Origin: a virus | Taxonomy: Duplodnaviria > Heunggongvirae > Uroviricota > Caudoviricetes | Virus record (IMG/VR): IMGVR_UViG_2778261505_000002 | Direction: 5' to 3' (one strand) | Length of the DNA: 64,000 nt | In this document: piece by piece, positions 1,090 through 62,747 of the stretch | Position numbering within the stretch: the first letter of the stretch is position 1 | Layout: every line of letters begins with the position of its first letter | Notes under the pieces: generated by a model | The model's database searches: none | What the model saw: the letters and a program-made list of their open reading frames with translations, nothing else | Told to the model about the DNA's origin: nothing | Position numbers and translations under genes: made by a program

Positions 1090-4000
1090 TTGGACATGGA
1101 ACAGTTCAAGAAGAAAAAATTACCGCTTCTTATTGCCGGTGCTGGTGGCAAGAAAAGTAAAAGCTCCAGCCGTACCCCGGTTGAAGCTGATGATACTGTC
1201 AATTCTCGTGCTATGGCAGCCATCCTCGACCTTCTTGGCGAGGGGGTTATCGGTGGCCTGGTAAATGGCGCAAAGTCGATCTTCATCGACGATTTACCGA
1301 TCTTGAATGAAGATGGCTCTTCCAACTTCAGCGGTATTACATGGGATTTTCGTGACGGCTCACAAGACCAGACGCCAATGGCTGGTTTTGATTTTGTTGA
1401 AACGCCTAAGTCCGTAAATATTCAGCTTAAAAAAACACACGACGTTACGGTTTCAATCGATAACGATGAAGCTGATCGCGTTCGTGTCATCATGAAATTC
1501 CCCTCTTTACGTAGCGTTGATAAAAGCTCTGGCGATACAAATGGCACTACGGTGAAGTACAAATTCCAGATCGCCAACGCAGACGCAACATTTTCTGATG
1601 TAGTGGCAGAAGGTGAGAAAAGCGTTGATATCACGCTAACGGCAAAGAAAACCGGCGTGTATTACCGTAGCTATGAGCTGAAACTGCCTAAGCCTGGTCG
1701 TGCATACAAGGTTAGGGTGATTCGTCTTACAGATGATAATAGTAGCCAGTACCTCTACAACGACACATGGGTTGATTCCATCGGTGAGATTGTCGACACG
1801 CCAATGAACTACCCTAACTCTGCTCTTGTTGGCTTGAAGGTCAATTCAGAGCAGTTTGGTAGCACAATGCCTTCCCGTTCGTATTTGGTGCGCGGTATCA
1901 AAATCCGAGTACCGTCAAACTACAACGAATACACCAATACTTATGTCGGCGTATGGGACGGTACTTTTAAGCTGTTGTCTTCTTCAAACCCTGCGTGGAT
2001 TCTCTACGATTTGCTTACCAATACTCGGTATGGTCTTGGGCAATTTGTGTCGGAATCCATGATTGACCTCGGCCAGCTCTACCAGATTGGTCGATATTGT
2101 GACGAAGAGGTCGATGATGGCTTTGGGGGTAAAGAGAAACGCTTTGCAATCAATACGCAGATCACCAGTCGACAAGACGCATACCGATTAATTCAGGATA
2201 TTGCCGGTGCATTCCGCGGCATGGTGTTTTGGGCTGGTGGCATGGTTAACATCATGCAGGATAGCCCATCAGATCCGGTAATGATGTTTACCAACTCCAA
2301 CGTCAAAGATGGACTGTTTACCTATAAAGGTTCTGCGCGTAAAGATCGCCCATCCGTTGCGCTCGTAACCTACAACAACAAGGAGGACGGTTATAAGCAA
2401 AATATCGAGTACGTTGAAGATCAGGACGCAATGCGCCGTTATGGTGAGCGTAAAACAGAAGTCGTAGCATTTGGATGTACAAGCCGAGGCCAGGCTCACC
2501 GAGTTGGTTTGTGGCTGTTGTATACCGCCAGAATGGAGTCGGATGTAATTACATTTACTGCCGGCTTAGACGCCTCATTTCTGATGCCTGGTGAAACCGT
2601 TCTGATTCAGAACAAATATCGTGCAGGTAAACGTAACTCCGGTCGAATTGTGGAGTTTACCAAAAACAGCATCACTCTCGATGCGCCTGTGTCGTTAGCT
2701 AAAAGCGGCAGCTTTATTCGGATATTGAATCAGGAAGGCAAAATCGTTGAACGCGATGTTCTTGAAACTGGCGAAAACATAACAAAGGTTACGTTTTCAA
2801 AAGCCCTGTCGTCAGCGGAAACGCCTGTTTTGAACGGTGTCTGGACAATTACAGAACCAGATCTCGAACCTATGCGCGTTCGCATCGTTAACATCGCACA
2901 GGGGGAAACGTCGGGTAGCTTTGACATCACCGCTGTTGAGAACAATCCGTCTAAATATGAGGCAATCGACAATGGTGCAACGCTGATCCCGCAGAATACG
3001 ACGGTATTGGACCCAACTTACTCCAAGCCATCTAATCTGCAAATCACTGAAGGGACTTATCTCTCAAGCCCGGGCAACCTGTCAGTAAAACTGACTGCAA
3101 CATGGGAAGGGAAATCTCCAGAGTATTGGATCAGTTGGCGACGTTCTGATGAAAACAATGTATCGAACTGGCAATCGGCGCGTGTAACCGAAGAGCAATA
3201 CGAAATCGTTAATGTCGCGGAGAATGGACGCTACGACTTCCAGCTGTATGCGGTTTCATTCAACGGTAAAAAAACAGAGATTATCAGTACCGTTTATCAG
3301 GTGTTGGGCACAATGACACCGCCTGATGCCCCAACGTCATTAACGGCCGTTGGAGACTATCGTAATGTGATACTGAATTGGGTTAATCCAGATTCGGTAG
3401 ACCTTGATCACATTAATGTTTACGCATCCCAGACCAACAATCTGGATACGGCGAAACTGATCGCAGAGTCTGCAAGCACCACCTTTACACATGCTGGTCT
3501 TGGGGATAGCGAAACGTGGTATTACTGGGTTCGAGCATCGAACAAGCGAGGTATGTTAAGTCCTCCGAACTCAAACTTGGGTACAGAGGCGACAACTCGC
3601 GATGTACTGTCGTTCCTGACTGGCAAAATTACATCTTCCGAGCTTGGTCAGGCTCTGCTTGAGGACATCAACAGCAAAGTCTCTCAAGAAGCAGTTGACG
3701 AGTTAAATGAGCATATCAACCAGAGCGTCGAATCTTTAGAGGGGGCGGTAAACGACGTTAAGGAAGATATAGCTGAATTAGATAAGCAGTTCAGCGATAA
3801 CCTCGCGGGTTTTGAAATAAAATTCAACGAGCGTAGCGATGCTTTGGAGAACGCACAAACCGAGCTTAAAGGTGAGGTTTCGGCAACGATTAACAAGGTC
3901 AATGAAGCGTTTGAAAAAATTGATGCTACTGATGCTGCAATTGTTGAAATCGAAAACACCGTATCTGAACACGATAAAGCTCTCGCTAATACAGTCGAGG

Positions 4001-5820
4001 CAATAAAGGCTGCAAGAGATGAAGCGGCGGCTCTTATTGCTAAGGAAAGCGAGGCTCGTGTTGAAGGTGATGCTGCAAACGCTAAACAACTGGAAGTGTT
4101 GCAGTCAACGGTAGAGGAAAGCTCCGCTGCCGTTGAAGAAATGAAAAAGACGGTTGCAGAGGTCGATCGTGCCAGTGCAGAACTGACTACGAACATTGAG
4201 GCTTTGGCCAAAACAAATATTGACCTGGCTCTTCGTCAAGATGAAGACCAGCACAAGCAGATGGTCAATAACGCGAAGATCGCAACAACACAGAAAACCT
4301 TTGCTGATGATATGTCTGCAATGGCCACGAAGGTTGAGGAAATTCGCGTAGAAATTGGCGAAGATATTAAGGCCAGTATTCTGGAAGAGTCCACCGCTCG
4401 TGCCGATGGCGATGAAGCGTTGGCAAAGCGTGTCACTCAGCTGCAATCTAAGTTTGAAGGAGATATCAGCGCGGCGATTAGTACAGAGCAGGAGGCTCGT
4501 ACATCTGCCGATGAAGCTCTGACGACACAAATCACTCAGCTTGAGTCGAAAGTAAGCAACGATATCGTCGCAGCTATTAAGGAAGAGCAAGAAGCCCGAG
4601 CAACGGAAGATTCGGCTCTGGCAAGCCAGATCACCCAACTTCAGGCAAAGGTTGATGATGATATTTCTGCTGCAATACGCAGTGAGCAGGAGGCCCGAGC
4701 AAGCGGGGACTCTGCGTTAGCCAAACAAATAAACCAGCTTCAGTCAAAGGTTGACGGTGATATATCCGCTGCCATCACTCAGGAGCAGGAGGCCAGAGCA
4801 AGTGCTGACCAGGCGCTCTCACGAGAAATTAACAGCCTGCGAGCACAAACCGGAACTGATATTGCCGCAGCGGTTGCTGTAGAGACAAAAGCAAGGACTG
4901 ATGCCGATAGTGCATTGTCTACCCAGATTACGTCTCTTACAGCAAAAGCTAATGATCTCAAGGCGTCTCTTGCCAGAGAAACAACGGCTCGTGCAGATGG
5001 TGATACCGCTTTAACAAAAGAGGTTTCAAGTTTAAAAGCACAGACAGCGAAAGATATTAGTGCGGCCGTTGCAGTTGAAACGCAGGCTCGAACTGATGCT
5101 GACTCGGCGTTGTCGTCTCAGATCACCAAGCTGACCTCTCAATACAAAGAGGATATTAAAGCGGCTGTAGCAACCGAAACGAAAACGCGTACAGAGCAAG
5201 ATGCTGCATTGGCGACTCAAATCACAAACTTAGAGTCTCAAACGGCAGCCAACATTTCCGCGGCGGTCACAACTGAAACGAAAGCGAGAACGCAGGCAGA
5301 TAATGCTCTGAGTGGGCGAATCGATACTCTGAAAGCAGAGGTGAATGGAAATACCGCGACAATTCAACAGCAGGCAACAGCTATTGCTGATACCAACAAA
5401 AAAGTGTCAACCGCGTGGACGTTGAAAATGGAGACTTCAACGAGCGGAGGGCAGAAGTATGTTGCCGGTATTGCGCTTGGTATTGACACCACTGGGCTAT
5501 CTCAGTTTTTGGTTCAGGCGGACAGGTTTGGTTTGGTCAACTCTGTTAACGGGAAGATCACAACGCCATTTGTTATCGAAAACAGTATCGCCTATATGAA
5601 TGGAGCGTATATCAAGGATGGCACAATCACCAATGCAAAAGTAGGCGATCTGCAATCTACCAATTTTGTTAGCGGTAGATCTGGATGGCGGTTCGGCAAA
5701 AATGGAACGCTTGAGATCAACGGTAATAGCGGCGGCAATGGGCGATTGGTTATAAATGGTCAGCGGATTGACGTTTATGACGATAACAACGTCTTACGAG
5801 TAAGAATTGGCCGTCTGTGA
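1090..5820 (+). CDS. Tail tip / host specificity protein, lambda gpJ-like (central tail fibre), with a coiled-coil tandem-repeat domain
   Basis: 1576 aa; N-terminus resembles lambda J; FN3-like middle section; about ten tandem ~33-aa repeats (EQEARxxxDxALxxQIxxLxSKVxxDIxAAI) between ~4380 and 5340. Confidence 0.8.
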   Translation: MDMEQFKKKKLPLLIAGAGGKKSKSSSRTPVEADDTVNSRAMAAILDLLGEGVIGGLVNGAKSIFIDDLPILNEDGSSNFSGITWDFRDGSQDQTPMAGFDFVETPKSVNIQLKKTHDVTVSIDNDEADRVRVIMKFPSLRSVDKSSGDTNGTTVKYKFQIANADATFSDVVAEGEKSVDITLTAKKTGVYYRSYELKLPKPGRAYKVRVIRLTDDNSSQYLYNDTWVDSIGEIVDTPMNYPNSALVGLKVNSEQFGSTMPSRSYLVRGIKIRVPSNYNEYTNTYVGVWDGTFKLLSSSNPAWILYDLLTNTRYGLGQFVSESMIDLGQLYQIGRYCDEEVDDGFGGKEKRFAINTQITSRQDAYRLIQDIAGAFRGMVFWAGGMVNIMQDSPSDPVMMFTNSNVKDGLFTYKGSARKDRPSVALVTYNNKEDGYKQNIEYVEDQDAMRRYGERKTEVVAFGCTSRGQAHRVGLWLLYTARMESDVITFTAGLDASFLMPGETVLIQNKYRAGKRNSGRIVEFTKNSITLDAPVSLAKSGSFIRILNQEGKIVERDVLETGENITKVTFSKALSSAETPVLNGVWTITEPDLEPMRVRIVNIAQGETSGSFDITAVENNPSKYEAIDNGATLIPQNTTVLDPTYSKPSNLQITEGTYLSSPGNLSVKLTATWEGKSPEYWISWRRSDENNVSNWQSARVTEEQYEIVNVAENGRYDFQLYAVSFNGKKTEIISTVYQVLGTMTPPDAPTSLTAVGDYRNVILNWVNPDSVDLDHINVYASQTNNLDTAKLIAESASTTFTHAGLGDSETWYYWVRASNKRGMLSPPNSNLGTEATTRDVLSFLTGKITSSELGQALLEDINSKVSQEAVDELNEHINQSVESLEGAVNDVKEDIAELDKQFSDNLAGFEIKFNERSDALENAQTELKGEVSATINKVNEAFEKIDATDAAIVEIENTVSEHDKALANTVEAIKAARDEAAALIAKESEARVEGDAANAKQLEVLQSTVEESSAAVEEMKKTVAEVDRASAELTTNIEALAKTNIDLALRQDEDQHKQMVNNAKIATTQKTFADDMSAMATKVEEIRVEIGEDIKASILEESTARADGDEALAKRVTQLQSKFEGDISAAISTEQEARTSADEALTTQITQLESKVSNDIVAAIKEEQEARATEDSALASQITQLQAKVDDDISAAIRSEQEARASGDSALAKQINQLQSKVDGDISAAITQEQEARASADQALSREINSLRAQTGTDIAAAVAVETKARTDADSALSTQITSLTAKANDLKASLARETTARADGDTALTKEVSSLKAQTAKDISAAVAVETQARTDADSALSSQITKLTSQYKEDIKAAVATETKTRTEQDAALATQITNLESQTAANISAAVTTETKARTQADNALSGRIDTLKAEVNGNTATIQQQATAIADTNKKVSTAWTLKMETSTSGGQKYVAGIALGIDTTGLSQFLVQADRFGLVNSVNGKITTPFVIENSIAYMNGAYIKDGTITNAKVGDLQSTNFVSGRSGWRFGKNGTLEINGNSGGNGRLVINGQRIDVYDDNNVLRVRIGRL

Positions 5821-5913
5821 TGGTGGAAAAAAAATTTTATATCGGTAAAAATAGGTAAGTATCTACTTAATGGCGGGCAAGGATAGCCCGCCAAATCAAG
5901 GAGCATATTCAAC

Positions 5914-8900
5914 ATGTGGTACAGGGAAGGTACTATCACATTTACACAGGGCAGCAATACTCTGGTTGGGGCAGGGACAGCCTGGAACGTAACAGCTAAT
6001 GGTGTGTTGCCGGGGATGATCGTCATTGGCCCCGACAATAAGCTGTATGAGATCAAGCGCGTAACCAGTGATACGAACATTGTTCTCTCAGAACCTTATA
6101 CCGGCGAAACTCAGTCTGAAGTTCCGTGCCGAATCATTACGACCTATGAAGGCGACTTAACACAGTTTAGCGCGCGCTTTACTGCGCTAATGTCGCGTAT
6201 ATCGGCTGATTCCAAGTCCATACGCAGTTGGTTGACTGCGCTGGATGAGGTGACAATCGAGCGTGAAGACGGTACAGAAGTGACCGTTAAGCCGCTAATG
6301 CAGATCGTCAACGAGCACAACGAAAACGTTGAGTGGTATAAAAATAACACTGACGCGATTGATGCTGCTGGCGACAAAGCTCGTGAGGCGGCGGCCAGTG
6401 CTGCCGCAGCAGCAAAAAGCGCCAATGCCGCTGGAGAAAAAGCCTCTCAAGCGTCTCAAAGTGCATCCGCTGCGGCATCCTCACAAAGTGCCGCAAGTGC
6501 GAGTGCAACTGCTGCGAAAAAATCTGAAACGAATGCTGCAGCGTCACAAAAATCTGCAGCCACTTCTGCATCCACCGCGACCACGAAGGCGTCAGAAGCT
6601 GCCACCTCAGCCCGGGATGCGGCGGCCTCAAAAGAGGCAGCGAAATCATCAGAAACGAGCGCAGCCTCGAGCGCCAGTAATGCCGCTTCCTCGGCAACGG
6701 CGGCAGGAAATTCCGCGAAGGCGGCAAAAACGTCCGAGACGAACGCCAGGTCTTCTGAAACGGCAGCGGGACAGAGCGCCTCGGCTGCGGCAGGCTCAAA
6801 AACAGCGGCTGCGTCGTCTGCCAGTGCCGCGTCAACAAGTGCCGGGCAGGCCTCAGCCAGTGCCACCGCCGCCGGAAAATCGGCAGAAAGTGCCGCATCG
6901 TCTGCTTCAACTGCCACAACGAAGGCTGGCCAAGCCACTGAACAGGCCAGCGCAGCAGCGAGGTCTGCTTCCGCAGCGAAGACATCCGAAACGAACGCGA
7001 AAGCGTCGGAAACCCGTGCAGAATCCTCAAAAACGGCAGCCGCATCGTCCGCCAGTTCGGCGGCGTCATCGGCATCATCGGCGTCTGCTTCAAAAGATGA
7101 GGCGACCAGACAGGCGTCAGCAGCGAAGGGCAGCGCCACGACGGCATCCACGAAAGCAACAGAGGCGGCAGGCAGTGCGACGGCAGCATCTCAGAGCAAA
7201 ACTGCTGCTGAATCCGCTGCGACCCGTGCGGAAGCTGCTGCTGATCGTGCTGAAGAGATTGCCGGTGCAGTTGCGATGGAAGACGCAAGCCTTACAACTA
7301 AAGGTGTTGTGAAACTTAGCAGTGCTGTCGACAGCACCAGTGAATCGCTGGCCGCAACGCCAAAAGCAGTTAAAGCAGCCAATGACAATGCGAATAGCAG
7401 GGTGCCATCTAACCGAAAAGTTAACGGTAAAGCACTGACTGCGGATATCAAATTAACGCCGAAAGATATTGGTACTTTAAATTCAGTAACGATGTCTTTC
7501 TCTGGCGGGGCAGGGTGGTTCAAACTGGCTACGGTTACCATGCCACAAGCGAGTTCCATCGTTTACATCGCATTGATTGGTGGCGCTGGTTACAACGTCG
7601 GCTCCCCACATCAGGCAGGCATTTCAGAACTGGTTCTACGAGCAGGCAATGGAAACCCCAAAGGGATTACAGGTGCTTTGTGGAAGCGTACAGCTGTCGG
7701 ATTAACGAATTTCGCCTGGATCAACACATCCGGCGATACATATGATATTTACGTTGAGATTGGCAATTATGCGACTCGTGTAAATATCCATTGGGATTGT
7801 ACTGCAAATGCGACAGTTTCTATTTATACCTCGCCAACATATTCAGCGAGTAAGCCTTCCAGCGTTACCGATGGTGTTGTTTATACGATGTATAGCACAC
7901 ATCAGAAACCGACGCCGTTAGATATTGGAGCACTGCCAACAACCGGAGGAACAGTTTCAGGTCCGTTGTCTGTTACAGGTGGATTAACTGGTTCATTGAA
8001 TGGTAATGCAAGTACAGCCACGAAATTGCAGACGGCAAGATCTATCGGTGGAGTTGTTTTCGACGGTTCTGCAAATATTAACCTTCCAGGTGTAAACACT
8101 ACGGGTAATCAGAACACCACTGGTAATGCTGCAACTGCTACAAAACTTCAGACGGCAAGAACTATCGGCGGCGTGAGCTTTGATGGTACTGCGAATATTA
8201 ATTTGCCAGGTGTTAATACGACTGGTAATCAGAACACAACGGGCAACGCGGCTACTGCTACGAAGTTGCAGACTGCGCGTACTATCAATGGGGTGTCGTT
8301 TGACGGCTCGGCAAATATTGCCTTGTCGCCAGCAAATATAGGTTGCCCGGCATCTCCTACTGGTTGGTTAACTACAGGAAGTAATGGAGGAGCAATAACG
8401 ACAGCCCAGTTAGTTACTTTGTTGCAAAATAACGGGGCATTCAGTACGAAAGCATGGATCGCTCGTTGTGCATGGGCGTATGCGAATAGTGCATCCATAC
8501 CAGACAGTGAAACTGGTTGTGGCATTATTCCACTGGCGGGTGCTGTGATAGAAGTATTCAGCAATAATACCAACAATTACACCATTCGAATAACAACGGC
8601 CACTACGACAAATGTCTCTGGTGCACTCACTAATGCGGAGTTTATCTATGTGTCTAATGGCTCAAGTTATTCACCTGGATGGCGCAGAGCGTATAACACT
8701 AGAAACAAACCAACAGCTTCTGATGTAGGAGCATTACCGCTTTCAGGTGGCACATTATCTGGAGGGTTAACGTCTTCTGGTGAGATCGTTTCAAAATATG
8801 CAAATGGTTTCCGCATTGCTTACGGTAACTTTGGGTTCTTTATCCGTAATGATGGGGCGAACACATATTTCCTGCTAACAGCATCAGGAGACACATTAGG

Positions 8901-12760: not shown

Positions 12761-13282
12761 TTATTCTTCGAACAATTTTTCGATAGATTTTGTAGGATAG
12801 AACAAAGAACGCTCGTTGTTACCAACCAGCTGGATAAAGTCTAAACTTTTATAAAACGCCTTGGCTTTGTCATTTAACGCCTCAACGAAAAGTCCATGAA
12901 TGCCTACAGCAAGAGATGCATTGTACACAACGCGCATTGCATGTGTTACAAGCATTGAGCCAAATCCTTGACCTTGAAGGGACTTGTCCAAAGCCAGCCT
13001 ACCCAAAGTAACACTTGGAACATTCCGATAAGGTACCTTCTTTTGCTGGCTTCTTGAAGGTAAGGACTCCTTTTCAAAGCAGCTACCTGACAAAGTGTAA
13101 TACCCTAACACTTTTGGTCTGCCTTCTTTCGTGCAAAGCACATAAGCGCGAAGAATTTTTCCCTCATGCTGCCTTTTTAAGTGGTTGGTTAAAAAGGCAT
13201 TTAGTGATTCTTCACCGCAATCAAAACCATTCAAATCATAATCTTTCTCTCCAGAGAAAATTTCTATCTTTATATTATCCAC
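12761..13282 (-). CDS. GNAT-family acetyltransferase toxin (TacT/AtaT/KacT-like)
   Basis: GNAT fold motifs (QGQGFGSML, acetyl-CoA binding region); 173 aa; immediately downstream of a DUF1778-type RHH antitoxin gene. Confidence 0.8.
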   Translation of the reverse strand: MDNIKIEIFSGEKDYDLNGFDCGEESLNAFLTNHLKRQHEGKILRAYVLCTKEGRPKVLGYYTLSGSCFEKESLPSRSQQKKVPYRNVPSVTLGRLALDKSLQGQGFGSMLVTHAMRVVYNASLAVGIHGLFVEALNDKAKAFYKSLDFIQLVGNNERSLFYPTKSIEKLFEE

Positions 13283-13289
13283 GAGTAAA

Positions 13290-13559
13290 CTACTCCATGC
13301 TTTTCAGACGATCAGCAGCTCGTTTCAGCTTGTCGTTCGGTGCCGGAGGATTGCTTATAGCGTCCATAACCAGATTCCAGGATTCTTCATTCAGAACTAG
13401 TCTACGGTGTTGCTCTATAACTTTCACGGCACGTTCAGATGCACTGCTAACCATAAACTGAGTAATGCTCTGGTTAGACATTGCGGCAGCTTCCTCGATG
13501 ATGCTTTTATCGTCATCGGTTAATCTCAAATCGATGCGCTGCTTTTTTAGTGCTGACAT
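13290..13559 (-). CDS. RHH antitoxin (TacA/DUF1778-like) of the GNAT toxin
   Basis: About 90 aa; start set at the ATG preceded by AGGAGG (track ORF extends to 13598); operonic with and upstream of the GNAT gene. Confidence 0.75.
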   Translation of the reverse strand: MSALKKQRIDLRLTDDDKSIIEEAAAMSNQSITQFMVSSASERAVKVIEQHRRLVLNEESWNLVMDAISNPPAPNDKLKRAADRLKSME

Positions 13560-13877
13560 GTATTCCTCCTGATGGCCGTGATGTAGGAAGGCCATCAATC
13601 TCCTCTGTTCAAACTGAGTTTTCGACTCAAAAATTACTTTAAAAGGCTATAGCCCATTACGTGTGCATTATCAAATTGTGTACGGCATATCACCGTACTT
13701 GTAATATAGAGGTCATTGTTACTTTTTTCAACAGACAAATACAAGCTATGTTTGCCAATTGTTAATCACAACCTACCATTTAACCTTTACACCGCAGCCG
13801 TAGGCATTTAGGCTATATCACATATAAGAAAACAAGTTGTTTCAGACGATAATTATATACGCAAAGGGAACTCTCCA

Positions 13878-14546
13878 ATGACCAAGATCTTTGTGGTTGG
13901 CGGCACAAAGGGCGGGCCTGGCAAATCCACCGTTGCCCAGCAAATTGCCGTTTGCCTGAAAGTCAAAAAGAAGAAGAAGGTTTATATTACCGATATAGAT
14001 ATTCAGCGCACGACAACGAGCTGGTGTGAAGACCGTCGACAGAACGAAGACCTTGAGCTGATTCCTTTTGCATACGTTCAGGATGACATCATTAAGCACC
14101 TAAAATCGCTTCAGGGTAGAGCTGAGTTTGTAGTGGTAGATGCTGGTGGCTTCGACTCCGAAATTCAGCGACAAGCGATGCTGATGGCTGACGTTATCAT
14201 TATCCCGCTGCGTCCTAAGCGTCGTGATTTGAAATCTTTACGTGACATCGATCCTATTATCGACAATGTTCGCAATGTAAACGATAAAGTGAAGGTCCGC
14301 GCGGTCATGAACCAGTGCCCGGCTTTGCCATCACAAGTGTCTCGCATTCTGGCGGCTAAAGAGATTGTTGAGACGTTTGGAATCGAGTCTGCGCCAGTCA
14401 ATCTATATAACCGCAACGTCTATGATGATGCGGAAGAGTCTGGTCGTTCTATCTTTGAAATGACCGGTAGCGAGCGCGACAAAAAGGCGGAAGCCGAGTT
14501 TGAAGAATTTGTAGATTATCTGTTGAGTCTGGAGGAAGAAGAATAA
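13878..14546 (+). CDS. parA: ParA-family partition ATPase
   Basis: Deviant Walker A (GGTKGGPGKST); 222 aa; followed by a small basic ParB/ParG-like gene whose start overlaps the parA stop. Confidence 0.85.
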   Translation: MTKIFVVGGTKGGPGKSTVAQQIAVCLKVKKKKKVYITDIDIQRTTTSWCEDRRQNEDLELIPFAYVQDDIIKHLKSLQGRAEFVVVDAGGFDSEIQRQAMLMADVIIIPLRPKRRDLKSLRDIDPIIDNVRNVNDKVKVRAVMNQCPALPSQVSRILAAKEIVETFGIESAPVNLYNRNVYDDAEESGRSIFEMTGSERDKKAEAEFEEFVDYLLSLEEEE

Positions 14547-14905
14547 TGTCCATGAAAATGGGTGACCTAGCAAAGCGCAAAGAGCCTGATGCACCGGCTA
14601 AGAACACAACTCCTTTGCGCCAACCAGTCAGACCACAGGGACGCCCGACTCGTGGCAAAGAGAAAATTAAAAGCCGCACAATGTCACTGGAGGACGAATA
14701 CTTCGAACTGCTGGAGATGATGAAGTTCATCCCTCGCTTCGAGAAGTTCACTCGTTCTGACGTGATTCGAGCAGCCATTTTCCATCTGGCAGAGAAGTCA
14801 CCGCAGGAAATCGAGGACATCGTGAAATTGAATGAGGCGATCACCGCTGCCGATGTCACGATGCGTACCGATGAAATCAAACGAGAGTTGATGAAGAAAG
14901 GTTAA
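14546..14905 (+). CDS. Small centromere-binding partition protein (ParG/ParB-like, type Ib)
   Basis: 119 aa, basic N-terminal tail, operonic with parA (overlapping start/stop). Confidence 0.6.
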   Translation: MSMKMGDLAKRKEPDAPAKNTTPLRQPVRPQGRPTRGKEKIKSRTMSLEDEYFELLEMMKFIPRFEKFTRSDVIRAAIFHLAEKSPQEIEDIVKLNEAITAADVTMRTDEIKRELMKKG

Positions 14906-14910
14906 AAATC

Positions 14911-14941
14911 ATGCATTGGCGCGTACATTGCGCCAATGCAT
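14911..14941. terminator. 12-bp perfect hairpin between convergent genes (terminator or protein-binding site)
   Basis: ATGCATTGGCGC-GTACATT-GCGCCAATGCAT; a T-run follows on the minus strand. Confidence 0.5.
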
Positions 14942-14957
14942 AACTACAGTGTCAGCT

Positions 14958-15725
14958 TTATGCCGCGCTAACACTATGTTCAGTCCTAACCACCCCAACC
15001 TTCACAAAAGGGCTACCGTAGCTTGGTGGCTTCTTGATTAATTTGCCTACATACAGTTTTCTAATATGCTCATCGGCTATTCTGCCAACAAATTCATAAC
15101 GTTTTGTGTCGGGGCCAAGAGCTATATCCCTTGTAAAGTACTGCTGAGAACCGGCTTTGACCCAGCATTCAATCTGATAAACTTCCATTATCAGCCCACC
15201 ATATGTAGCGTAGGCATATTTGAGATTCTCGTCTCTTGGAACCTTTGCCCATACGCCACGCGTAGCTTCATATAATGCCAGAGCGGACATTCCTGACTTG
15301 TAGGTGCTGTTTAGCAGGAAGGCAAGACCGGCGTGCTCAGGAGCAATTTCAGTTTCCTCTTGCAGCACTAAGTGATGGTAGGCGTCTAGTGATATTCTGC
15401 CCATCATGGAACCACTTCCTCGTACCTTATTCGTAAGCTCTCCGACCCCCATAAGGTCGATGCATGTCGCCTCAACAAGTTTGGCTGTGGTTTCATCCAT
15501 ACCATGACGAAGTATATCTATGCCTAATTTTTTATTAGCCAAAAGTTCTTTGATCCGCATGGATTTGGGAGAGTCATCGGGATACTTGATGTGATCGAGA
15601 CAACGAGTCGATTTGCCTTTTCCTATGTAAAACGGTCTTTTCATCTTGTCTTCTGTATCATAGAGACAGTAAACATAGTATTTAGCCTTATCCAATGATC
15701 TCGCGTATACCGATAAATCGTCCAT
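14958..15725 (-). CDS. GIY-YIG nuclease-domain protein
   Basis: N-terminal YVYCLYD...PFYIGKGK motif (GIY-YIG); 255 aa; isolated on the minus strand. Confidence 0.6.
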   Translation of the reverse strand: MDDLSVYARSLDKAKYYVYCLYDTEDKMKRPFYIGKGKSTRCLDHIKYPDDSPKSMRIKELLANKKLGIDILRHGMDETTAKLVEATCIDLMGVGELTNKVRGSGSMMGRISLDAYHHLVLQEETEIAPEHAGLAFLLNSTYKSGMSALALYEATRGVWAKVPRDENLKYAYATYGGLIMEVYQIECWVKAGSQQYFTRDIALGPDTKRYEFVGRIADEHIRKLYVGKLIKKPPSYGSPFVKVGVVRTEHSVSAA

Positions 15726-15837
15726 TATTGCATCTCTTTGCTACTGACTAATGCGTTCTATTTTACACATAAGTTTTTAATCAATTTAACAGGCTCAAAG
15801 TGTAGAGCTTCTGGGCGTCTAAGACGACAAGTTATGC

Positions 15838-15892
15838 CTGCTTCCGTATATATAAATAATAAGTAACTTATTAAATATATACGGAAGCAGGT
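15838..15892. repeat. Large palindrome (17-bp inverted arms around an AT-rich palindromic core)
   Basis: CCTGCTTCCGTATATAT ... ATATATACGGAAGCAGG; a near-identical element recurs at 61770-61825. Confidence 0.7.
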
Positions 15893-15998
15893 CTTTTAAA
15901 AGACACCACCAGAACAACTCCCTTCCGTTTCCACTTCCAAAAACTGCCACCAGTCGCTATCATCCGCTCATTGTGATAAGTAAGTAACTACCTACCAG

Positions 15999-16748
15999 GT
16001 GAGCCACATGAGCCAAATCTTTTTCGATACCATCGACAACGACCAGTACGACTTCATGACAGAGTGGAATACCGCTGTTATGGACAAGTGGGTCGCTGAA
16101 AACATTGGTTTGTCGCGCTGTAAAGACGAGGCTGAACTCTTCGAGACGAAGTGGTTTGATTACCGCGACATGCATCCTCTCATGGCCACCTGTCTTTTTA
16201 CGGAGGCATACAAACGTCAGTACTCAAATATCATGCTGACGCACGGTCGCGAACACTTTGAAACAGCTCCGTTCACCACCGGGTTAAAACGTCTGCCTTA
16301 TCAGGAGTTGTCGACTGCCAATAAAACGTCGCTATGGAAAGCACGCCAGTTTGCGGATCGCTATTGCTGCTCATACGACTACTTTATCTCCACCGTTCTT
16401 TCCGCAGCTGCACGACGGCTGTGGGACAAGCTGCCGCGCCCACAGCATTTATGGCAGCCAGAACTGATTGAGATATTTGAAGAGAAATTAGCCAGACGCG
16501 CAACAACCCGTCTGGATGACTCTCTGGTTAGCTTTAAGCATATGGGAGACATGCAGTTCAACCCGATTCAGGAAAGCTATTTTGAGTGGATTCTGGAGCG
16601 TTTGCGCACCATCCCTCGCAGCAAGCGCATACGCGCAATTTTCTCCGCTATCTGGCTAATGGAAATCGTTCCAGAGCGCCTTATTTCCGCCCACTTTCCA
16701 GAAGAACTGGAAGAAGCACGGCGGTTTATTGATCCCCTATCTAATTAA
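15999..16748 (+). CDS. Hypothetical protein (first gene of the replication block; possible helicase loader)
   Basis: 249-aa ORF directly upstream of the DnaB-like helicase; no motif recognised. Confidence 0.4.
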   Translation: MSHMSQIFFDTIDNDQYDFMTEWNTAVMDKWVAENIGLSRCKDEAELFETKWFDYRDMHPLMATCLFTEAYKRQYSNIMLTHGREHFETAPFTTGLKRLPYQELSTANKTSLWKARQFADRYCCSYDYFISTVLSAAARRLWDKLPRPQHLWQPELIEIFEEKLARRATTRLDDSLVSFKHMGDMQFNPIQESYFEWILERLRTIPRSKRIRAIFSAIWLMEIVPERLISAHFPEELEEARRFIDPLSN

Positions 16749-16791: not shown

Positions 16792-18132
16792 ATGACCGAA
16801 CTTTGCCATACAGGACGCGGGCTGTCCGAAGAATTTGATGAAGATTTCCAGAACAGACTGACGGCATATTTTTGTCGTGATCACGAGTTTCTTACTCGTG
16901 CGGGAGATCTGGTTGTGCCTAGCCAGTTTGCCAATGCGGCCAATGCCATATTGGTTAATATGGTTTCGGGCTATTACCGTATGTACAAGAGCGCGCCCTC
17001 TTCATCTGCAATTCTGGATATGCTTAAGCGTGCGAAACGCGATAAGACTATCCGTGAGGAACTATTCGCCGATGTTGTTGCTGCGTTTAAGCGCATCCTT
17101 GCAGAAAAATTGTCCGATACCTCGTACATGGTTGACCAGGTATCAACCTTCGCAAAAAGTGTAGCGTTTGATGATGCTCTGATTAAGGCTGCTGAACTGA
17201 AAGAGAAAGGCGACTTTCAGGGGGCGATGGCAATCATGGCCAAGGTTCAGCAGATTGGATCGAACGAAGCGACCGGAATCTATGACTACTACACCTCCGC
17301 AAGTGAGCGATTGAAAGCGCGTGAATATGAGGCTTCAGAGGAGTATGTACCAAACAGTATTACAACTGGACTCCCTCTTCTCGATAGGTTGCTGTACCAA
17401 AAAGGCTGGGCAAAGCGCGAAATGGTGCTCTTCATGGGGTTCGCTAAATCCGGTAAATCGACCGCAATGGGGGAGTTTTCCATAAACGCAACACTTGCTG
17501 GCTACAATGTTCTGTATCTCTCGCTGGAGGTTCACACCACCATTTTATCCGACCGTTTTGATGCAAGATTGTCGGAGACGGAAATGTCCAAGTTGGTGGA
17601 ACGGCGCGATGAAGTTCATCGTAAGTTGGCAGAGTTGGGAGCCTCTAAGGGGATTGGTAGTTTGTGGGTTGTTGAGCGTCCGTCAGGAAGTATGTCACCG
17701 GCAGATCTGGACCGTATGCTTAACAGTATGAAAGCCAATGGCATGGTGCCTGACATGGTTGTTGTCGACTACGCAGATTTGATGCGTGCCAGTTATGACC
17801 TTCGTGATGATCGCGCCAACATTCGTAGTATCTACACCGATTTACGTGCTCTTTATGACAAGCATAACGTTGCTGGGATCACGGCATCGCAGACAAACCG
17901 TGAAGGTGGCGCGTCAGAAGTTGCCACAATGATGCACGCTGCCGACAACATCGAAAAAGTACGTATTGCTGACCTGGTAATAACGATCAACAAAACCGAA
18001 GAAGAAGAAGCGAAAGGAGAGGCTCGTCTCTACTTTGCTGGTTCACGTAACCAGCAGGGAGGGATCAGCATTCGCGTTAAACAAAACCTCGAACAAATGC
18101 GCTTCATTGAGCGAATCTTAGACGTTACCTAA
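16792..18132 (+). CDS. Replicative DNA helicase (DnaB-like, RecA-fold C-terminal domain)
   Basis: Walker A GFAKSGKST, Walker B VVVDYADLM, and arginine-finger region (ASQTNREG). Confidence 0.8.
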   Translation: MTELCHTGRGLSEEFDEDFQNRLTAYFCRDHEFLTRAGDLVVPSQFANAANAILVNMVSGYYRMYKSAPSSSAILDMLKRAKRDKTIREELFADVVAAFKRILAEKLSDTSYMVDQVSTFAKSVAFDDALIKAAELKEKGDFQGAMAIMAKVQQIGSNEATGIYDYYTSASERLKAREYEASEEYVPNSITTGLPLLDRLLYQKGWAKREMVLFMGFAKSGKSTAMGEFSINATLAGYNVLYLSLEVHTTILSDRFDARLSETEMSKLVERRDEVHRKLAELGASKGIGSLWVVERPSGSMSPADLDRMLNSMKANGMVPDMVVVDYADLMRASYDLRDDRANIRSIYTDLRALYDKHNVAGITASQTNREGGASEVATMMHAADNIEKVRIADLVITINKTEEEEAKGEARLYFAGSRNQQGGISIRVKQNLEQMRFIERILDVT

Positions 18133-18213
18133 AAAATAAGCGTGGAGAACACCTCCACGCTTGATTCATTGGTGAAACAACTTTTCTTTTGCCAAACCAC
18201 AAAAGAAAAACAC

Positions 18214-19395
18214 ATGAGCCTTTATGTTATATCAACATTTAGGTTGGTCACAATATTGCCTGTTAAAAGTGGAATTATCGTGAGCGAGCTGAAAGAGCTA
18301 ATTACCGAATTAGATTTTGAACAATGGTTGGATACTGAAGGTATCGTTTATCGACGTGGAGGCGTGAGTGCTCGCGGTCGTGAAGTGAATATCAAGGAGT
18401 GTCCGGTATGCGGCAGCTCCAACTGGAAGGTATATTTCAATCTGACCAGTGGCGTCGGTAAATGCTTCGCTGGTGATCATCCCGAAGAGATTCAGTTCAA
18501 TAAGCTGGTCTTCCTCAAGCACTACAGCGGCAAATCACGACGACAGTTCGAGGAATATGTGCAGAACGCCCTTCTTTCCCAGGGGTGGGCACCAAAGAAA
18601 GAAGAGCTAGTGCTTGCAAGCACAGTCGAGTTAGAGGGGCCAGTTGCACTCCCTCGTCATTACGAGCTTCCTATAGATGGTCGTCTTCCAGACTATCTGG
18701 TTGAACGAAACATATCGCCTGAAATGGCAAAGTATTTTGACCTACGATACTGCGTCGAAGGCAAGCACGCCTATGTAGATCCGTATACAGATCAGGTTAA
18801 AGGACAGATATTCGATATGCGAATACTGATACCGGTTTACGATCTGGATGGGGTAATGAAGACATTTCAGGGACGAGACATTACCGGTACAGCAGAACGC
18901 CGCTACCTCTTTCCTATGCAGCTTCCAGCTTCAGGTAAATTTCTCTACAACGGCCATAATGCAGTCGGCAAACAGACTGTAGTTGTCTGTGAGGGTGCGT
19001 TCGATGTTATGGGGGTCAAACGAGCTATTTTCGACGAAGAAACATTACGTGATTACGTGGAGCCAATAGGAACGTTCGGGATGCATCTATCTGGCAACAC
19101 CACTCAGGATGCAGAAGATCAGTTGGGCGCGTTCCTGACGCTCAAGGCGCGTGGATTACGTAATGTGATCATGATGTGGGATAGTGAAAAGCAAGCTATA
19201 CGCAACACGATGGCCGCAGCCAGGCGACTGACCAGTATTGGTCTTAATGTCAAAGTGGCGTGTTTGGGCGAGGAAGGACTCGACCCGGGCGATGCAACGC
19301 CAGAGCAAATCATCAAAGCCTATTATCGGGCAAAACCGTATACCAAGCAGTTGGAGTTGCAAAGCAAGGTTTTGGGCATTAAGGCTCTATCATAA
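18214..19395 (+). CDS. DNA primase (zinc-binding + TOPRIM)
   Basis: CPVCGSS...CFAGDH zinc-ribbon-like motif and TOPRIM-like VVVCEGAFDVMG; start ambiguous (track ORF starts at 18142; 18214 carries the conserved AAAGAAAAACACATG context). Confidence 0.7.
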   Translation: MSLYVISTFRLVTILPVKSGIIVSELKELITELDFEQWLDTEGIVYRRGGVSARGREVNIKECPVCGSSNWKVYFNLTSGVGKCFAGDHPEEIQFNKLVFLKHYSGKSRRQFEEYVQNALLSQGWAPKKEELVLASTVELEGPVALPRHYELPIDGRLPDYLVERNISPEMAKYFDLRYCVEGKHAYVDPYTDQVKGQIFDMRILIPVYDLDGVMKTFQGRDITGTAERRYLFPMQLPASGKFLYNGHNAVGKQTVVVCEGAFDVMGVKRAIFDEETLRDYVEPIGTFGMHLSGNTTQDAEDQLGAFLTLKARGLRNVIMMWDSEKQAIRNTMAAARRLTSIGLNVKVACLGEEGLDPGDATPEQIIKAYYRAKPYTKQLELQSKVLGIKALS

Positions 19396-20308: not shown

Positions 20309-20791
20309 TTGGCGGTAATTGTGAAAGCTGATTTGTCAAAAATCCCCTCTATTTCAGGAAATAATGGTTATTCACTTCGTTGTGAGGAAGTAAAGATAAA
20401 CGGTGAGTCGGCATATTGCAGCTACTCCGTTTGCCAGCACACCATTCTTGCCTTCAAAGAAAACCGTCTTCCTCGAACTTCATTCCAGTCGTGCGCAACC
20501 GCTATCAAAGCAGGCAAATGCAAGGCGTTAAAAATGATGGTTGAAGAGATTCGTAAAGGAGAATCTCTGTATTTCGAAGATATGACCGCGCTCATTAAGG
20601 AGGTTGAAGAACGGAATAAACAAGCCAGAACTTTAAAACGAAAACGTGACAGTGTAACGATTAATAGCATGGTTAAGAAGAGCGCCACATCACAAACAGC
20701 GATCACTGACGTGTATGCGGCGTTGCTTGAAGAAACAACAAAAGAAACACATGAGCAAATCGATCAACATATGGAGGTAAAACAACAATGA
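20309..20791 (+). CDS. Hypothetical Cys-rich protein
   Basis: 160-aa ORF; several Cys in the N-terminal half; 3' end overlaps the ligase start. Confidence 0.4.
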   Translation: MAVIVKADLSKIPSISGNNGYSLRCEEVKINGESAYCSYSVCQHTILAFKENRLPRTSFQSCATAIKAGKCKALKMMVEEIRKGESLYFEDMTALIKEVEERNKQARTLKRKRDSVTINSMVKKSATSQTAITDVYAALLEETTKETHEQIDQHMEVKQQ

Positions 20792-22110
20792 AAAAGTTGA
20801 TCGCACTTAAGCATAAGCTGGACGAAATGAAAGTTATGGGCACCAATGCAAAAAAAGAGGCATTGGCCAACATGGATGACTTTGAACAAAGCATGGTTTC
20901 ATTGATGCTCAACCCTTTCATCCGTTTTGGGGTAAAGAAATACAAAGTGGCAGAGCCGCTTAGTGAGTCCATCCCAAGTGACGAAAAAGCCATTGATGTA
21001 CTGAATAAGCTGGCCTCTCGCGAGCTAACGGGGAACGCAGCAATAGCAGCTGTTGAGTCTATCGTGGCGTCAATGTGCGCCGATGGGCAGGACGTGTTCC
21101 GTCGTTTCCTCTTAAAAGACCCGAAAGCTGGCGTTGGGATTAGCCTATGCAACAAGGTTTTTGAAAATCCCATTCCGAAATTCGAGGTGCAGCTGGCGTC
21201 ACCGTATAAAGAAAAAGGCGACAAATACCCCTTCAAGCCAAATCCTAAAGCAAAATGGCCGATGATTGGCAGTCTTAAGCTCGATGGTTTGCGAGTAATT
21301 TGCGAGGTTATTGTTGACGAGGAAGAGGTTAACTTCCTTTCTCGTACTGGTAATCCAATCACGTCTCTCGATCACCTAAAGCCAGCCATGCTCGAATTAG
21401 GCAAACTTTCAGGCCACAAACACATCTTCTTCGATGGTGAAGGAACTGCCGGTTCATTTAACCAGTCCGTATCTGCATTGCGCAAAAAGAACGTGCAGGC
21501 AATTGGCGCTATTTATCATGTTTTCGACTTCTTCCTACCGGAATGGCGAGCACAGGCTAAATCCAAAGAGTATGCAAAGACAGGTATGAAGCTGAAAGAG
21601 CGCCTGGCTATGCTGGTGGCGTTGTTCAAAAACGATCGCAGTGAAGGCTACACACAAGACATTCACCTGCATCCGTTCTATATCATCCATAGCCACGAAG
21701 ACTTCATCGAACGCTTCATGAAACGCCTGGACGATAACGAAGAAGGGGAGATGGGCAAAGATCCGAACTCTGTTTACGAGTTTAAACGTACCCGCAGCTG
21801 GTGGAAGTTAAAAGACGAAGATTCAGAAGATGGTGAAATTATCGACTTTGAGCCGGGCGACCCGGACTCTGGTTTTGCCAACACACTTGGAAAAATTGTT
21901 ATTCGTCTTGAAAACGGCGTCATCGTTCGTGCGAGCGGCATTAAGCATAAATATCTGGATGAGATCTGGAACAACAAAGAGAAGTACCGTGGTCGTATTG
22001 TCGAGGTTCATTGTCACGAGAAAACACCGGACGGCAGCTTACGCCACCCACGACTGAAATGGCCGCGTTGCTTACGCGATACAGAAGATCGAATCGGAGA
22101 TAAAGAATGA
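20788..22110 (+). CDS. ATP-dependent DNA ligase
   Basis: Adenylation motif I (KLDGLR) and downstream nucleotidyltransferase motifs; 440 aa. Confidence 0.8.
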   Translation: MKKLIALKHKLDEMKVMGTNAKKEALANMDDFEQSMVSLMLNPFIRFGVKKYKVAEPLSESIPSDEKAIDVLNKLASRELTGNAAIAAVESIVASMCADGQDVFRRFLLKDPKAGVGISLCNKVFENPIPKFEVQLASPYKEKGDKYPFKPNPKAKWPMIGSLKLDGLRVICEVIVDEEEVNFLSRTGNPITSLDHLKPAMLELGKLSGHKHIFFDGEGTAGSFNQSVSALRKKNVQAIGAIYHVFDFFLPEWRAQAKSKEYAKTGMKLKERLAMLVALFKNDRSEGYTQDIHLHPFYIIHSHEDFIERFMKRLDDNEEGEMGKDPNSVYEFKRTRSWWKLKDEDSEDGEIIDFEPGDPDSGFANTLGKIVIRLENGVIVRASGIKHKYLDEIWNNKEKYRGRIVEVHCHEKTPDGSLRHPRLKWPRCLRDTEDRIGDKE

Positions 22111-23699: not shown

Positions 23700-23774
23700 G
23701 ATGGTGTAGCTCAGCGGTAGAGCAGTTGGCTGTTAACCAACTGGTCGGTGGTTCGAATCCACCCACCATCGCCA
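23700..23774 (+). tRNA. tRNA-Asn (anticodon GTT)
   Basis: Cloverleaf folded by hand: 7-bp acceptor stem GATGGTG/CACCATC, anticodon loop CTGTTAA, GGTTCGAATCC T-arm, encoded CCA. Confidence 0.85.
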
Positions 23775-23779
23775 ATTTA

Positions 23780-23866
23780 GGGGAGTTAGTCCGTAGAGGT
23801 AGCGGTGTAGACTGTAAATCTACTGTCATTGCGACTCGGGTGGTTCGACTCCATCACTCCCCACCA
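23780..23866 (+). tRNA. tRNA-Tyr (anticodon GTA), long variable arm
   Basis: Acceptor GGGGAGT/ACTCCCC, anticodon stem-loop GTAGA-CTGTAAA-TCTAC, long variable arm, T-loop TTCGACT, CCA; D-arm pairing is atypical. Confidence 0.75.
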
Positions 23867-23870
23867 AATT

Positions 23871-23946
23871 GCCGGTTTAGCTCAGTTGGTAGAGCGCCTG
23901 CCTTGTAAGCAGGATGTCAGCGGTTCGAGTCCGTTAACCGGCACCA
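23871..23946 (+). tRNA. tRNA-Thr (anticodon TGT)
   Basis: Acceptor GCCGGTT/AACCGGC, D-arm GCTCAGTTGGTAGAGC, anticodon loop CTTGTAA, T-loop TTCGAGT, CCA. Confidence 0.85.
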
Positions 23947-24163
23947 ACACAACAGGAAAGAGCATTGAAAACCGCCGAGACTGCCCTGTTTTAAGCGTAA
24001 GTCCGTGCAAACGTCATACAGTGCTCTTTTCGTTGTGGTTGATGCGCAGACTGATGCGCGGAAAGAAATGCCCCAGCGACACACGAGGCGAGTTCACACA
24101 CTGCAATGCAGTCAGTAGCCGGGGTCGCTAAGCCGGAGATCAGTACCGGTAACCACAACAATT

Positions 24164-24250
24164 GGAGAGTAGGGAGCATGGTGCTCAAGCGGTCTTGAAA
24201 ACCGTCCCATTGTGCAAGCGATGATGGTTCGATTCCATTACTCTCCGCCA
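24164..24250 (+). tRNA. tRNA-Ser (anticodon TGA), type II with long variable arm
   Basis: Acceptor GGAGAGT/ACTCTCC, anticodon loop CTTGAAA, 17-nt variable arm, T-loop TTCGATT, CCA. Confidence 0.75.
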
Positions 24251-61154: not shown

Positions 61155-61748
61155 ATGATTGCAGCCGAAAAAATCAAACAGCGAAAGCGCGACAACTCTC
61201 TTCGTGACCTCTGGAGAACACCTGACTGGCTGTTTTCTGCCATTCAACGTTATCTTGGAGTGACATTTGATGTTGACGTTGCCTGCAACAAGGACAATGC
61301 AAAGCTGCCTAATTTCATAGGCGTTGAGCGTGATGCTTTGAAATCTGAATGGGGACAGCCAGGTACAATTGCCTTCCTCAATCCACCCTACTCCAAAATC
61401 TACCCCTGGATTGATGCGGCTATACGTGAGCAGGCTCGCGGAGTTACAACAGTGATGCTAATTCCTCAATCCCTAGATACAAAGTGGTATGAGCGTGCAA
61501 CAGAGTGTGCGAATGAGACGATTATTCTGTCTGGTGGCCGCGTAGCGTTTGTCGAGCCTGACGTAAATCTGGGGCAGGTAGAAGTAAACATCAACCCAGG
61601 TGGCAGTATGCTCGTTGTTTTTCGAGGATTCTGTCAGGACGCTGGGCACTCTATAAGCAAGATCCCTTTGGACGTCATGAAAAGTCTGGGAGGGTATGAT
61701 CCTGCGAATGTGATCAGGAAAAAAAGACCATCAAAGAAGGCTGCTTAG
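61155..61748 (+). CDS. DNA N6-adenine methyltransferase (phage Dam family)
   Basis: Catalytic NPPY motif (IAFLNPPYSKIYPW) and T1-Dam-like architecture; 197 aa. Confidence 0.8.
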   Translation: MIAAEKIKQRKRDNSLRDLWRTPDWLFSAIQRYLGVTFDVDVACNKDNAKLPNFIGVERDALKSEWGQPGTIAFLNPPYSKIYPWIDAAIREQARGVTTVMLIPQSLDTKWYERATECANETIILSGGRVAFVEPDVNLGQVEVNINPGGSMLVVFRGFCQDAGHSISKIPLDVMKSLGGYDPANVIRKKRPSKKAA

Positions 61749-61769: not shown

Positions 61770-61825
61770 AGCCTGCTTCTGTATATATAAATAACTACAT
61801 ATTAATTATTAATATACGGAAGAAG
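61770..61825. repeat. Second copy of the large palindrome (CTTCTGTATATAT ... ATATACGGAAG)
   Basis: Near-identical in arms and AT-rich core to the element at 15838-15892. Confidence 0.65.
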
Positions 61826-61933
61826 GCTGTTTTGTATCAGAGACTCCAGACCTGAACATCACTACAGAATCCACTAGAACCCCTTCCCAGACGCTTTAAA
61901 ATCGATTTTATGAACCACTTTAAGGAAACCAAC

Positions 61934-62164: not shown

Positions 62165-62747
62165 TAGATAAGTACAAACTATTCATAAAGTGAATTGTAA
62201 GTGCTAAGATCTGATAGTTTCCAGTCGTAGACTGGAGACTCGACCTGATGGGTGGGGGTAAGCGTCACTGGCGTCAGGTTTAAAAAAAGCTCACTACCAG
62301 CGTAGAACTGGTGCCGTTTAGGTGTCGGGGAAGGGGGAACCAAAGTGAGCAGAGACAAGGGTCACTTTATGATTGTCGAGTCTGGGGTGTTTCGAGAGGT
62401 TGAATCCAGTACTCCCCTTCATAAAGTGTGGGAAGATCTCGGTTCTGGGGTGCTGTCATCCATAACTTCCCAAGTCTAAGCTGGCAGTAGACTTAGACCA
62501 TAACTTTTCAGGTTATGAAACGACCAGGTTGGTGAGAGATTTTTATACTCACCTCCCTGGGAGAGTATTACCTGAAAAGACAACCTCTCACTTCGTTCGA
62601 GGTGAACTTCACTCACTTCGTTCGTTCAGTTCAGGTTTATAAAAACCTGTTCTGGGAAGTAATTTGTTTATTTTAATAATTATTAACACGCACGCGTGTG
62701 CGCACGCGCGAGGAAAAATCGGCGCGGCGCTTGATTCAGGAGTTTAT

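Follow-up and report, generated by a model that had tools for sequence, protein, structure and literature searches.

PD-T4-3 was described as a single-gene anti-phage system and was later characterised as a type IV restriction endonuclease and renamed CMoRE (PMC12923530). It is the described system closest to the gene considered here, a coding sequence at 14958..15725 on the minus strand of a 64,000-nucleotide stretch of viral DNA (Caudoviricetes; IMG/VR virus record IMGVR_UViG_2778261505_000002), to which, at its full length, we refer as the window. The gene begins with ATG and encodes 255 amino acids (aa). Taken together, the evidence makes it very probable that its product is a divergent PD-T4-3/CMoRE member, a predicted defence nuclease acting on modified DNA that is carried as optional cargo by an SSU5-like phage-plasmid of Escherichia coli.

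Published CMoRE members come from E. coli ECOR68, APEC O1 and O157:H7 and are represented by Protein Data Bank (PDB) entries 9U7U, 9U7Z, 9U75 and 9U8D (PMC12923530). Restriction of phages T2, T4 and T6 by CMoRE amounts to about five logs and does not involve abortive infection; the enzyme cleaves DNA containing 5-hydroxymethylcytosine (5hmC) or glucosyl-5-hydroxymethylcytosine (5ghmC), leaving DNA with cytosine or 5-methylcytosine (5mC) uncut (PMC12923530). The enzyme is a tetramer, a dimer of dimers that depends on V92, L96 and the beta1-beta2 loop, and its cut site is CN11/N9G (PMC12923530). Its N-terminal GIY-YIG domain, for which similarity to UvrC has also been reported, possesses an extra tyrosine (the GIYxY-YIG pattern), and its active site is covered by an acidic autoinhibitory loop between alpha2 and alpha3 in which four consecutive acidic residues are found in "most" members; the C-terminal domain binds 5-hydroxymethyl-dCTP (5hm-dCTP) (PMC12923530). 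Activity of PD-T4-3 has likewise been seen in a clinical E. coli isolate that is its native host (10.1101/2024.12.20.629700). Moreover, a homologue from Capnocytophaga with 48% identity, PD-T4-3Capno, was recovered by metagenomic selection and is a modification-dependent nuclease that, at high dose, also cuts Mu DNA, which contains carbamoylmethyl-adenine (PMC12366544). The divergence of this enzyme, which nevertheless retains modification dependence, indicates that function in the family is kept across a large sequence distance.

Assignment of the protein to PD-T4-3/CMoRE

Sequence and structure searches with the 255-aa protein converge on a single family. The PADLOC model for PD-T4-3 (PDLC04031) recognises it at E=1.3e-23, with aa 11-231 aligned to profile positions 11-238 of 256, which is near full length. 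Among PDB sequences, a single-sequence phmmer search returned only the CMoRE chains 9u7u_A and 9u75_A, across both domains (aa 12-230, E=2e-15), and the CMoRE match improved to E=6.3e-23 when a profile of 33 homologues was used instead. The protein also matches PHROG 5356, a family of "unknown function," over its full length (E=1e-99), and it has no match in NCBIfam. An AlphaFold2 model of the protein has a mean predicted local distance difference test (pLDDT) value of 82.7; searched with Foldseek, its top four matches are CMoRE entries, including 9u75 and 9u7u (E down to 4.6e-12, probability 1.00), followed by the GIY-YIG domains of UvrC (1yd5 and 1ycz; target-normalised template modelling (TM) score of ~0.6). 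On the sequence evidence, membership in the PD-T4-3/CMoRE family is secure.

The domain architecture follows that of the characterised enzymes. At its N-terminus the protein carries a GIY-YIG nuclease domain (15444..15692, minus strand), and Pfam recognises one domain only, the LEM-3-like GIY-YIG family PF22945, which covers aa 32-104 (30.1 bits, cut-off 27 bits; E=5.5e-7). The GIYxY-YIG pattern is present as Y17-V-Y19 and F-Y33-I-G, including the third tyrosine specific to the family, and eight residues (Y17, Y19, Y33, G35, R41, H45, E85, and N99) are invariant in the 33 homologues, which share 50-78% identity. In alignment, the motif residues correspond to Y17, Y19 and Y31 of CMoRE, to its VEA motif and to its catalytic Arg and Glu, that is, to residues whose mutation inactivates CMoRE (PMC12923530). 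With the invariant catalytic residues thus aligned, the prediction of an active nuclease equipped with a CMoRE-type reader is well supported. The nuclease domain is followed by a flexible interdomain linker (aa 95-107; 15405..15443, minus strand), in which pLDDT falls below 50 and whose counterpart likewise lacks density in the CMoRE crystal structures. Beyond it lies a C-terminal domain of about aa 108-245 (14991..15404, minus strand), which is homologous to the modification-sensing domain of CMoRE and was found to have the CMoRE-type sensing fold. An earlier note on this DNA, made from its letters alone, had reported a minus-strand GIY-YIG gene at 14958-15725 with an uncharacterised C-terminal domain. 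The same open reading frame and the same N-terminal domain were recovered here, but the C-terminal half can no longer be called uncharacterised, as the whole protein is a full-length PD-T4-3/CMoRE homologue. No NUMOD, IENR1, helix-turn-helix (HTH) or zinc-finger family was detected anywhere in the 255 residues (Pfam, E<=1).

CMoRE is a single-component system, and the arrangement of the gene agrees with this. It is a lone gene with its own probable terminator in a 0.93-kb cassette, and homologues on chromosomes and IncF plasmids have unrelated neighbours; the solitary state of the chromosomal homologues is consistent with a system of one component. An exhaustive search at E<=1e-3 yielded 1781 representatives, one per 50%-identity cluster. 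Among the best 150 of these, near full-length matches range in identity without a break from ~54% down to ~32%, and full-length proteins, roughly 240-265 aa long, form the majority. Judged by these matches, the clade of the window protein is one branch of a large and continuous superfamily.

The phage-plasmid and its exchangeable slot

A 3-kb region around the gene shares 99.7% identity with Escherichia phage CMS-2020a and 98.7% with phage PhiR41_1; in its flanks it resembles phage Cyrano and Salmonella phage SSU5, and the same region matches hundreds of non-mobilizable enterobacterial plasmids of ~110 kb. The window therefore represents an SSU5-like phage-plasmid of E. coli. Among relatives of this element, the position of the gene behaves as an exchangeable slot. 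Specifically, the interval at 14904-15836 of the window holds the minus-strand PD-T4-3/CMoRE-family gene, as do its counterparts in CMS-2020a (CP053388) and PhiR41_1; phage Cyrano instead has a DUF2971 protein matching the PADLOC candidate PDC-S31, a second CMS-2020a record (CP054387) has a 567-aa KAP-family P-loop NTPase matching PDC-S49, SSU5 has three genes that include another DUF2971, and the E. albertii plasmid pEA11_2 is nearly empty, with only ~35 bp. The counterparts of the slot in the extracted loci of these relatives lie at 2603-3406 (L001), 2649-4352 (L004), 5105-7017 (L002), and 1700-1790 (L013). The slot flanks are 97-99% identical in Cyrano and CP054387 despite the different cargo, and an artificial junction representing the empty slot is covered by only 5 of 729 plasmids. 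Since relatives carry other genes or almost nothing at this position, the gene is dispensable for replication and partition. The slot between the gene for the 119-aa partner of ParA and a large palindrome behaves as a hotspot for defence cargo; in the literature we found nothing specific on a described "defence hotspot" in SSU5 phage-plasmids.

The boundaries of the mobile unit can be drawn precisely. Pairwise BLAST comparisons with Cyrano, CP054387 and SSU5 show that homology stops at 14903, at the stop codon of the 119-aa gene, and resumes at 15827-15837, the left edge of the palindrome. The mobile unit therefore spans 14904-15836 (0.93 kb) and comprises a terminator hairpin, the gene and 111 bp upstream of it. 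The hairpin (14904..14941, minus strand) consists of a stem at 14911-14941 of 12-16 bp, with 12-bp perfect arms at 14911-14922 and 14930-14941, followed, on the strand of the gene, by a U5 tract at 14904-14908; this tract and the stop codon that ends the convergent 119-aa gene overlap. As RNA it forms 16 pairs with a free energy of -25.1 kcal/mol (z=-5.3), and none of 200 shuffled sequences folds as well. A consensus terminator scan of 14800-16100 called nothing, this hairpin included; on its fold energy and on the U tract as read from the sequence, we consider it the probable intrinsic terminator of the 255-aa gene. The upstream region (15726..15836, minus strand, 111 bp) travels with the gene and presumably supplies its own promoter and ribosome-binding site.

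The palindrome at the opposite end is of a different nature. This element of 55 bp (15837..15891, without strand) forms the right-hand edge of the cargo slot and has 17-nt arms of 100% complementarity (15837-15853 and 15875-15891) together with inner arms (DNA fold z=-8.1). The E. albertii plasmid with the near-empty slot retains it, as do SSU5, Cyrano and CP054387; 46 kb away, at 61772-61826, there is a second, diverged copy, against an expectation of 0.14 matches by chance. Because it is retained where the cargo differs or is missing, and because a second copy exists, the palindrome is not part of the gene's module. The second copy lies just downstream of a gene for a Dam-family N6-adenine methyltransferase (61155-61748; Pfam PF05869). 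The palindrome may serve as an operator, a centromere or part of an origin. The earlier description of a gene set between the partition operon and the replication block, with a hairpin on one side and the large palindrome on the other, holds in its geography: partition and replication genes flank the gene, and both structures are real and above chance. It is refined in one respect, as the hairpin travels with the gene in the cassette and the palindrome belongs to the conserved backbone. The comparison of related genomes that the same note had called for shows a gene that varies among relatives, with other cargo or a near-empty slot in its place, and not a housekeeping gene that is universally conserved at the locus.

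Beyond this phage-plasmid, the gene is distributed on replicons of several kinds. Of 5426 complete E. coli genomes, 107 (~2%) carry it, with all 109 copies on plasmids, and 135 PLSDB plasmids encode it with a protein identity of >=99%. A 1.6-kb piece of the phage-plasmid is situated between copies of IS3 and IS2 on an IncF conjugative plasmid of 141 kb (NZ_CP062888.1; locus L005, 4623-6237); this piece extends from the 3' end of parA through the 119-aa gene, the PD-T4-3-like gene and the palindrome to the start of the next gene, and shows that the predicted defence gene moves between replicon types. A homologue with 76% identity lies beside relBE and recombinases on a Citrobacter IncFIB plasmid, and the chromosomes of Providencia (near mutS), Shewanella and others contain homologues of 53-79% identity as solitary genes. 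In a phage-plasmid survey from 2025, DefenseFinder calls of PD-T4-3 are reported for E. coli and Shigella elements of the SSU5 group, and the name appears at least 44 times in the supplement (10.1101/2025.09.12.675607). A partial protein from Shigella sonnei (P0040) is 100% identical to the window protein, so that the PD-T4-3 of those SSU5-group elements is likely to be the window gene. Serratia, Pectobacterium and Klebsiella jumbo phages encode more distant homologues, with 25-30% identity over 71-88% of the window protein (Serratia phage Moabite, MK994515, 6439-7125; ON287375; MN642089; and others), and these are annotated as GIY-YIG or homing endonucleases. These may be CMoRE-like modification-dependent nucleases that serve in competition between phages.

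Almost all large open reading frames of the window lie on the plus strand, and the 255-aa gene stands alone on the minus strand, with a plus-strand group to either side. On the partition side are the ParA gene (13878-14546, plus strand) and the gene for its 119-aa partner (14546-14905, plus strand), the latter convergent with the 255-aa gene. On the other side, the replication block opens with a gene for a 249-aa protein (15999-16748) and continues with genes for a DnaB-like helicase (16792-18132) and a primase (18142-19395), all on the plus strand. Just upstream of parA, on the minus strand at 12761-13598, is a toxin-antitoxin pair resembling TacT/TacA, composed of a TacT-like GNAT acetyltransferase toxin of 173 aa and a TacA1-family antitoxin of 102 aa (Pfam PF08681, E=9e-26); the pair is annotated KacT in phage Cyrano and is absent at that position in PhiR41_1. 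Elsewhere in the window, four tRNA genes (Asn, Tyr, Thr, and Ser) are clustered at 23700-24250, and there are genes for a Rep3-family replication initiator (Pfam PF01051; 44705-45919, minus strand), an ATP-dependent DNA ligase (20788-22110), and RNase H (62664-63338).

Predicted mechanism, divergence and rival explanations

By analogy with the published enzymes, the protein would act as a direct sensor and destroyer of modified phage DNA. Its C-terminal reader domain would bind DNA bearing a modified base, of which the 5-hydroxymethyl- or glucosyl-hydroxymethyl-cytosine of T-even phages is the likeliest, and the bound reader would bring the GIY-YIG domain, with its Y17/Y19/Y33, R41, E85 and N99, onto the modified DNA. 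There the nuclease would make Mg2+-dependent double-strand cuts, and the phage DNA would be degraded; the chromosome of the host and the DNA of the phage-plasmid would be spared, as both contain ordinary cytosine. In this way the lysogen and its resident phage-plasmid would be protected from superinfecting lytic phages by direct immunity rather than by abortive infection. We infer the nuclease activity, the modification sensed, the oligomeric state, the expression and the protective phenotype of the window protein from its characterised relatives, and the same analogy points to 5hmC or 5ghmC as its putative precise substrate.

Several observations weigh against so direct an extension of what is known for CMoRE. 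Pairwise identity to canonical PD-T4-3 is only 33%, and the window protein scores 82 bits on the PADLOC PD-T4-3 model, against 464 bits for the canonical copy from an E. coli plasmid (L008); together with five homologues tested from its clade, it falls within 80-103 bits. At this distance, substrate specificity is not simply transferable from the tested enzymes. Moreover, the acidic loop between alpha2 and alpha3 is 5 residues shorter than that of CMoRE, with two adjacent acidic residues (the DD of HIKYPDDSPKS) as opposed to the DDDE in the 15-residue CMoRE insert; the alignment of the autoinhibitory loop sets YPDDSPKS in the window protein against GEVAAADDDELLS in CMoRE, and the acidic content of the loop varies within the window clade. 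A further deletion of 4 residues precedes the RHG strand. At the tetramer interface, V92 of CMoRE is conserved as V84, but L96 is replaced by C88, a cysteine that is invariant across the clade. The segment around CMoRE Y127, whose main-chain oxygen contacts the 5-hydroxyl, is aligned across an indel, and two alignments of it disagree. Global superposition of the full-length model on CMoRE is likewise poor (TM 0.38), which probably reflects the orientation of the two modelled domains around a flexible or disordered linker. Finally, a sigma-70 promoter scan of 14800-16100 gave nothing at threshold.

A tentative possibility is that the phage-plasmid clade forms a functionally distinct branch of the CMoRE superfamily which, its acidic safety-catch being truncated and its contact segment remodelled, may read different or more kinds of DNA hypermodification or be under a different control, and that its reader domain, together with the supposedly novel fold of CMoRE itself, is a highly diverged PUA-like domain of the ASCH/EVE/YTH kind. 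Should such an ancestry be true, CMoRE would fall within the classical reader-nuclease type IV enzymes. Unlikely, in our view, is a reading that keeps the fold and the logic of reader plus GIY-YIG nuclease and has the clade sense a modification other than 5hmC or 5ghmC, or distinguish self from non-self more loosely, so that other phages or mobile DNA would be restricted. It draws on the low identity and model score just described, on the shortened and less acidic lid, and on the indel at the segment that contacts 5hmC. It also draws on the plasticity already evident in PD-T4-3Capno, which cuts the carbamoylmethyl-adenine DNA of Mu, and on the sheer size and graded nature of the superfamily.

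Two further explanations would take the protein out of defence altogether. The protein could be a free-standing homing endonuclease of the Seg/I-TevI type, a selfish gene that would spread by cleavage of the empty allele in related phage-plasmids and by repair that copies it into that allele. The UvrC-like GIY-YIG catalytic domain (PF22945) would suit such a role, as would the intergenic position on the opposite strand, the presence/absence polymorphism between near-identical flanks, with a nearly empty allele among the variants, and the homing annotation of the distant jumbo-phage homologues. However, the C-terminal half of the protein is a CMoRE sensing domain in place of any NUMOD, IENR1, HTH or zinc-finger module, and most of the alternative alleles are filled with unrelated defence-candidate genes, the empty junction being as rare as described above. 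Close homologues, moreover, are not confined to phages or introns but are solitary chromosomal genes in Providencia, Shewanella and others or reside on IncF plasmids, and all full-length members of the family that have been put to experimental test are defence nucleases. We consider homing highly improbable. Of the alternatives originally put forward for this gene, a homing-endonuclease-like mobile gene or a nuclease effector, it is thus the effector that stands, both domains being matched by CMoRE, and the homing endonuclease that falls, for want of a suitable DNA-binding module and in view of the bacterial homologues and the defence-candidate slot.

It is likewise highly improbable that the protein is a maintenance nuclease of the phage-plasmid, for example a structure-specific enzyme of the LEM-3/Slx1 kind that would process the neighbouring palindrome in the course of replication, partition or the resolution of multimers. 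The RefSeq name "LEM-3-like GIY-YIG domain-containing protein" would fit this role, as would the location of the gene between the par and rep genes and against a large palindrome. Yet most SSU5-like elements that possess the palindrome and the same par and rep genes have the 255-aa gene absent or replaced, the palindrome also occurs at its second site unlinked to the gene, and homologues are found where no such backbone exists. We reject both the homing and the maintenance explanations.

The reading that we favour, a predicted modification-dependent defence nuclease of the PD-T4-3/CMoRE family, assigns a concrete function to a gene whose RefSeq label is no more than its domain name or "hypothetical." The gene is at the same time a fairly ordinary putative defence gene, and the reading is nothing conceptually new: it adds a divergent member to a defence family already known, and the literature has noted the context before. 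Phage-plasmids of a common E. coli and Shigella family probably protect their hosts against phages of the T-even type, which bears on phage therapy and on competition between phages. Furthermore, the precise exchangeable slot, which begins at the stop codon of the gene for the ParA partner, ends at the conserved palindrome and is occupied by alternating defence candidates, is a convenient place to mine for new defence genes. The divergence of the clade, with its short acidic loop, offers a modest opportunity for enzymology and for tools to detect 5hmC.

Comparison with described systems

The systems to which the window protein can be compared differ from it in instructive ways. Structures of PUA-like readers have been listed with figures, namely 5.0 and 4.8 for the YTH entries 6fpx and 6zd9 and 4.5 for the EVE protein THYN1 bound to 5mC DNA (5j3e); the same list gives, for reader-nuclease enzymes, 4.5 for the EVE-HNH enzyme VcaM4I (6yex) and 4.4 and 3.1 for the N-terminal domains of archaeal McrB (6n0s and 6p0g). 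The reader-nuclease type IV enzymes of the PUA superfamily comprise EVE-HNH VcaM4I (6YEX), the YTH-like N-terminal domains of archaeal McrB (6N0S/6P0G) and the EVE-GIY-YIG fusions catalogued elsewhere (PMC7641849). Outside CMoRE, the closest structural relative of the nuclease domain is the N-terminal GIY-YIG domain of UvrC (1YCZ/1YD5), but UvrC is a subunit of nucleotide-excision repair that lacks both a reader domain and the extra tyrosine. The homing endonucleases I-TevI and SegA-G differ in carrying a sequence-specific C-terminal module where the window protein is predicted to have a reader of modified bases; unlike them, the family of the window protein is found in bacterial chromosomes and plasmids, and in a slot that it shares with defence-candidate genes. 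CMoRE itself, like the window gene, is a single gene for a protein of about 255 aa that is recognised by the PADLOC PD-T4-3 model, and it is distinguished from the homologue described here by the carriage of the latter on a phage-plasmid.
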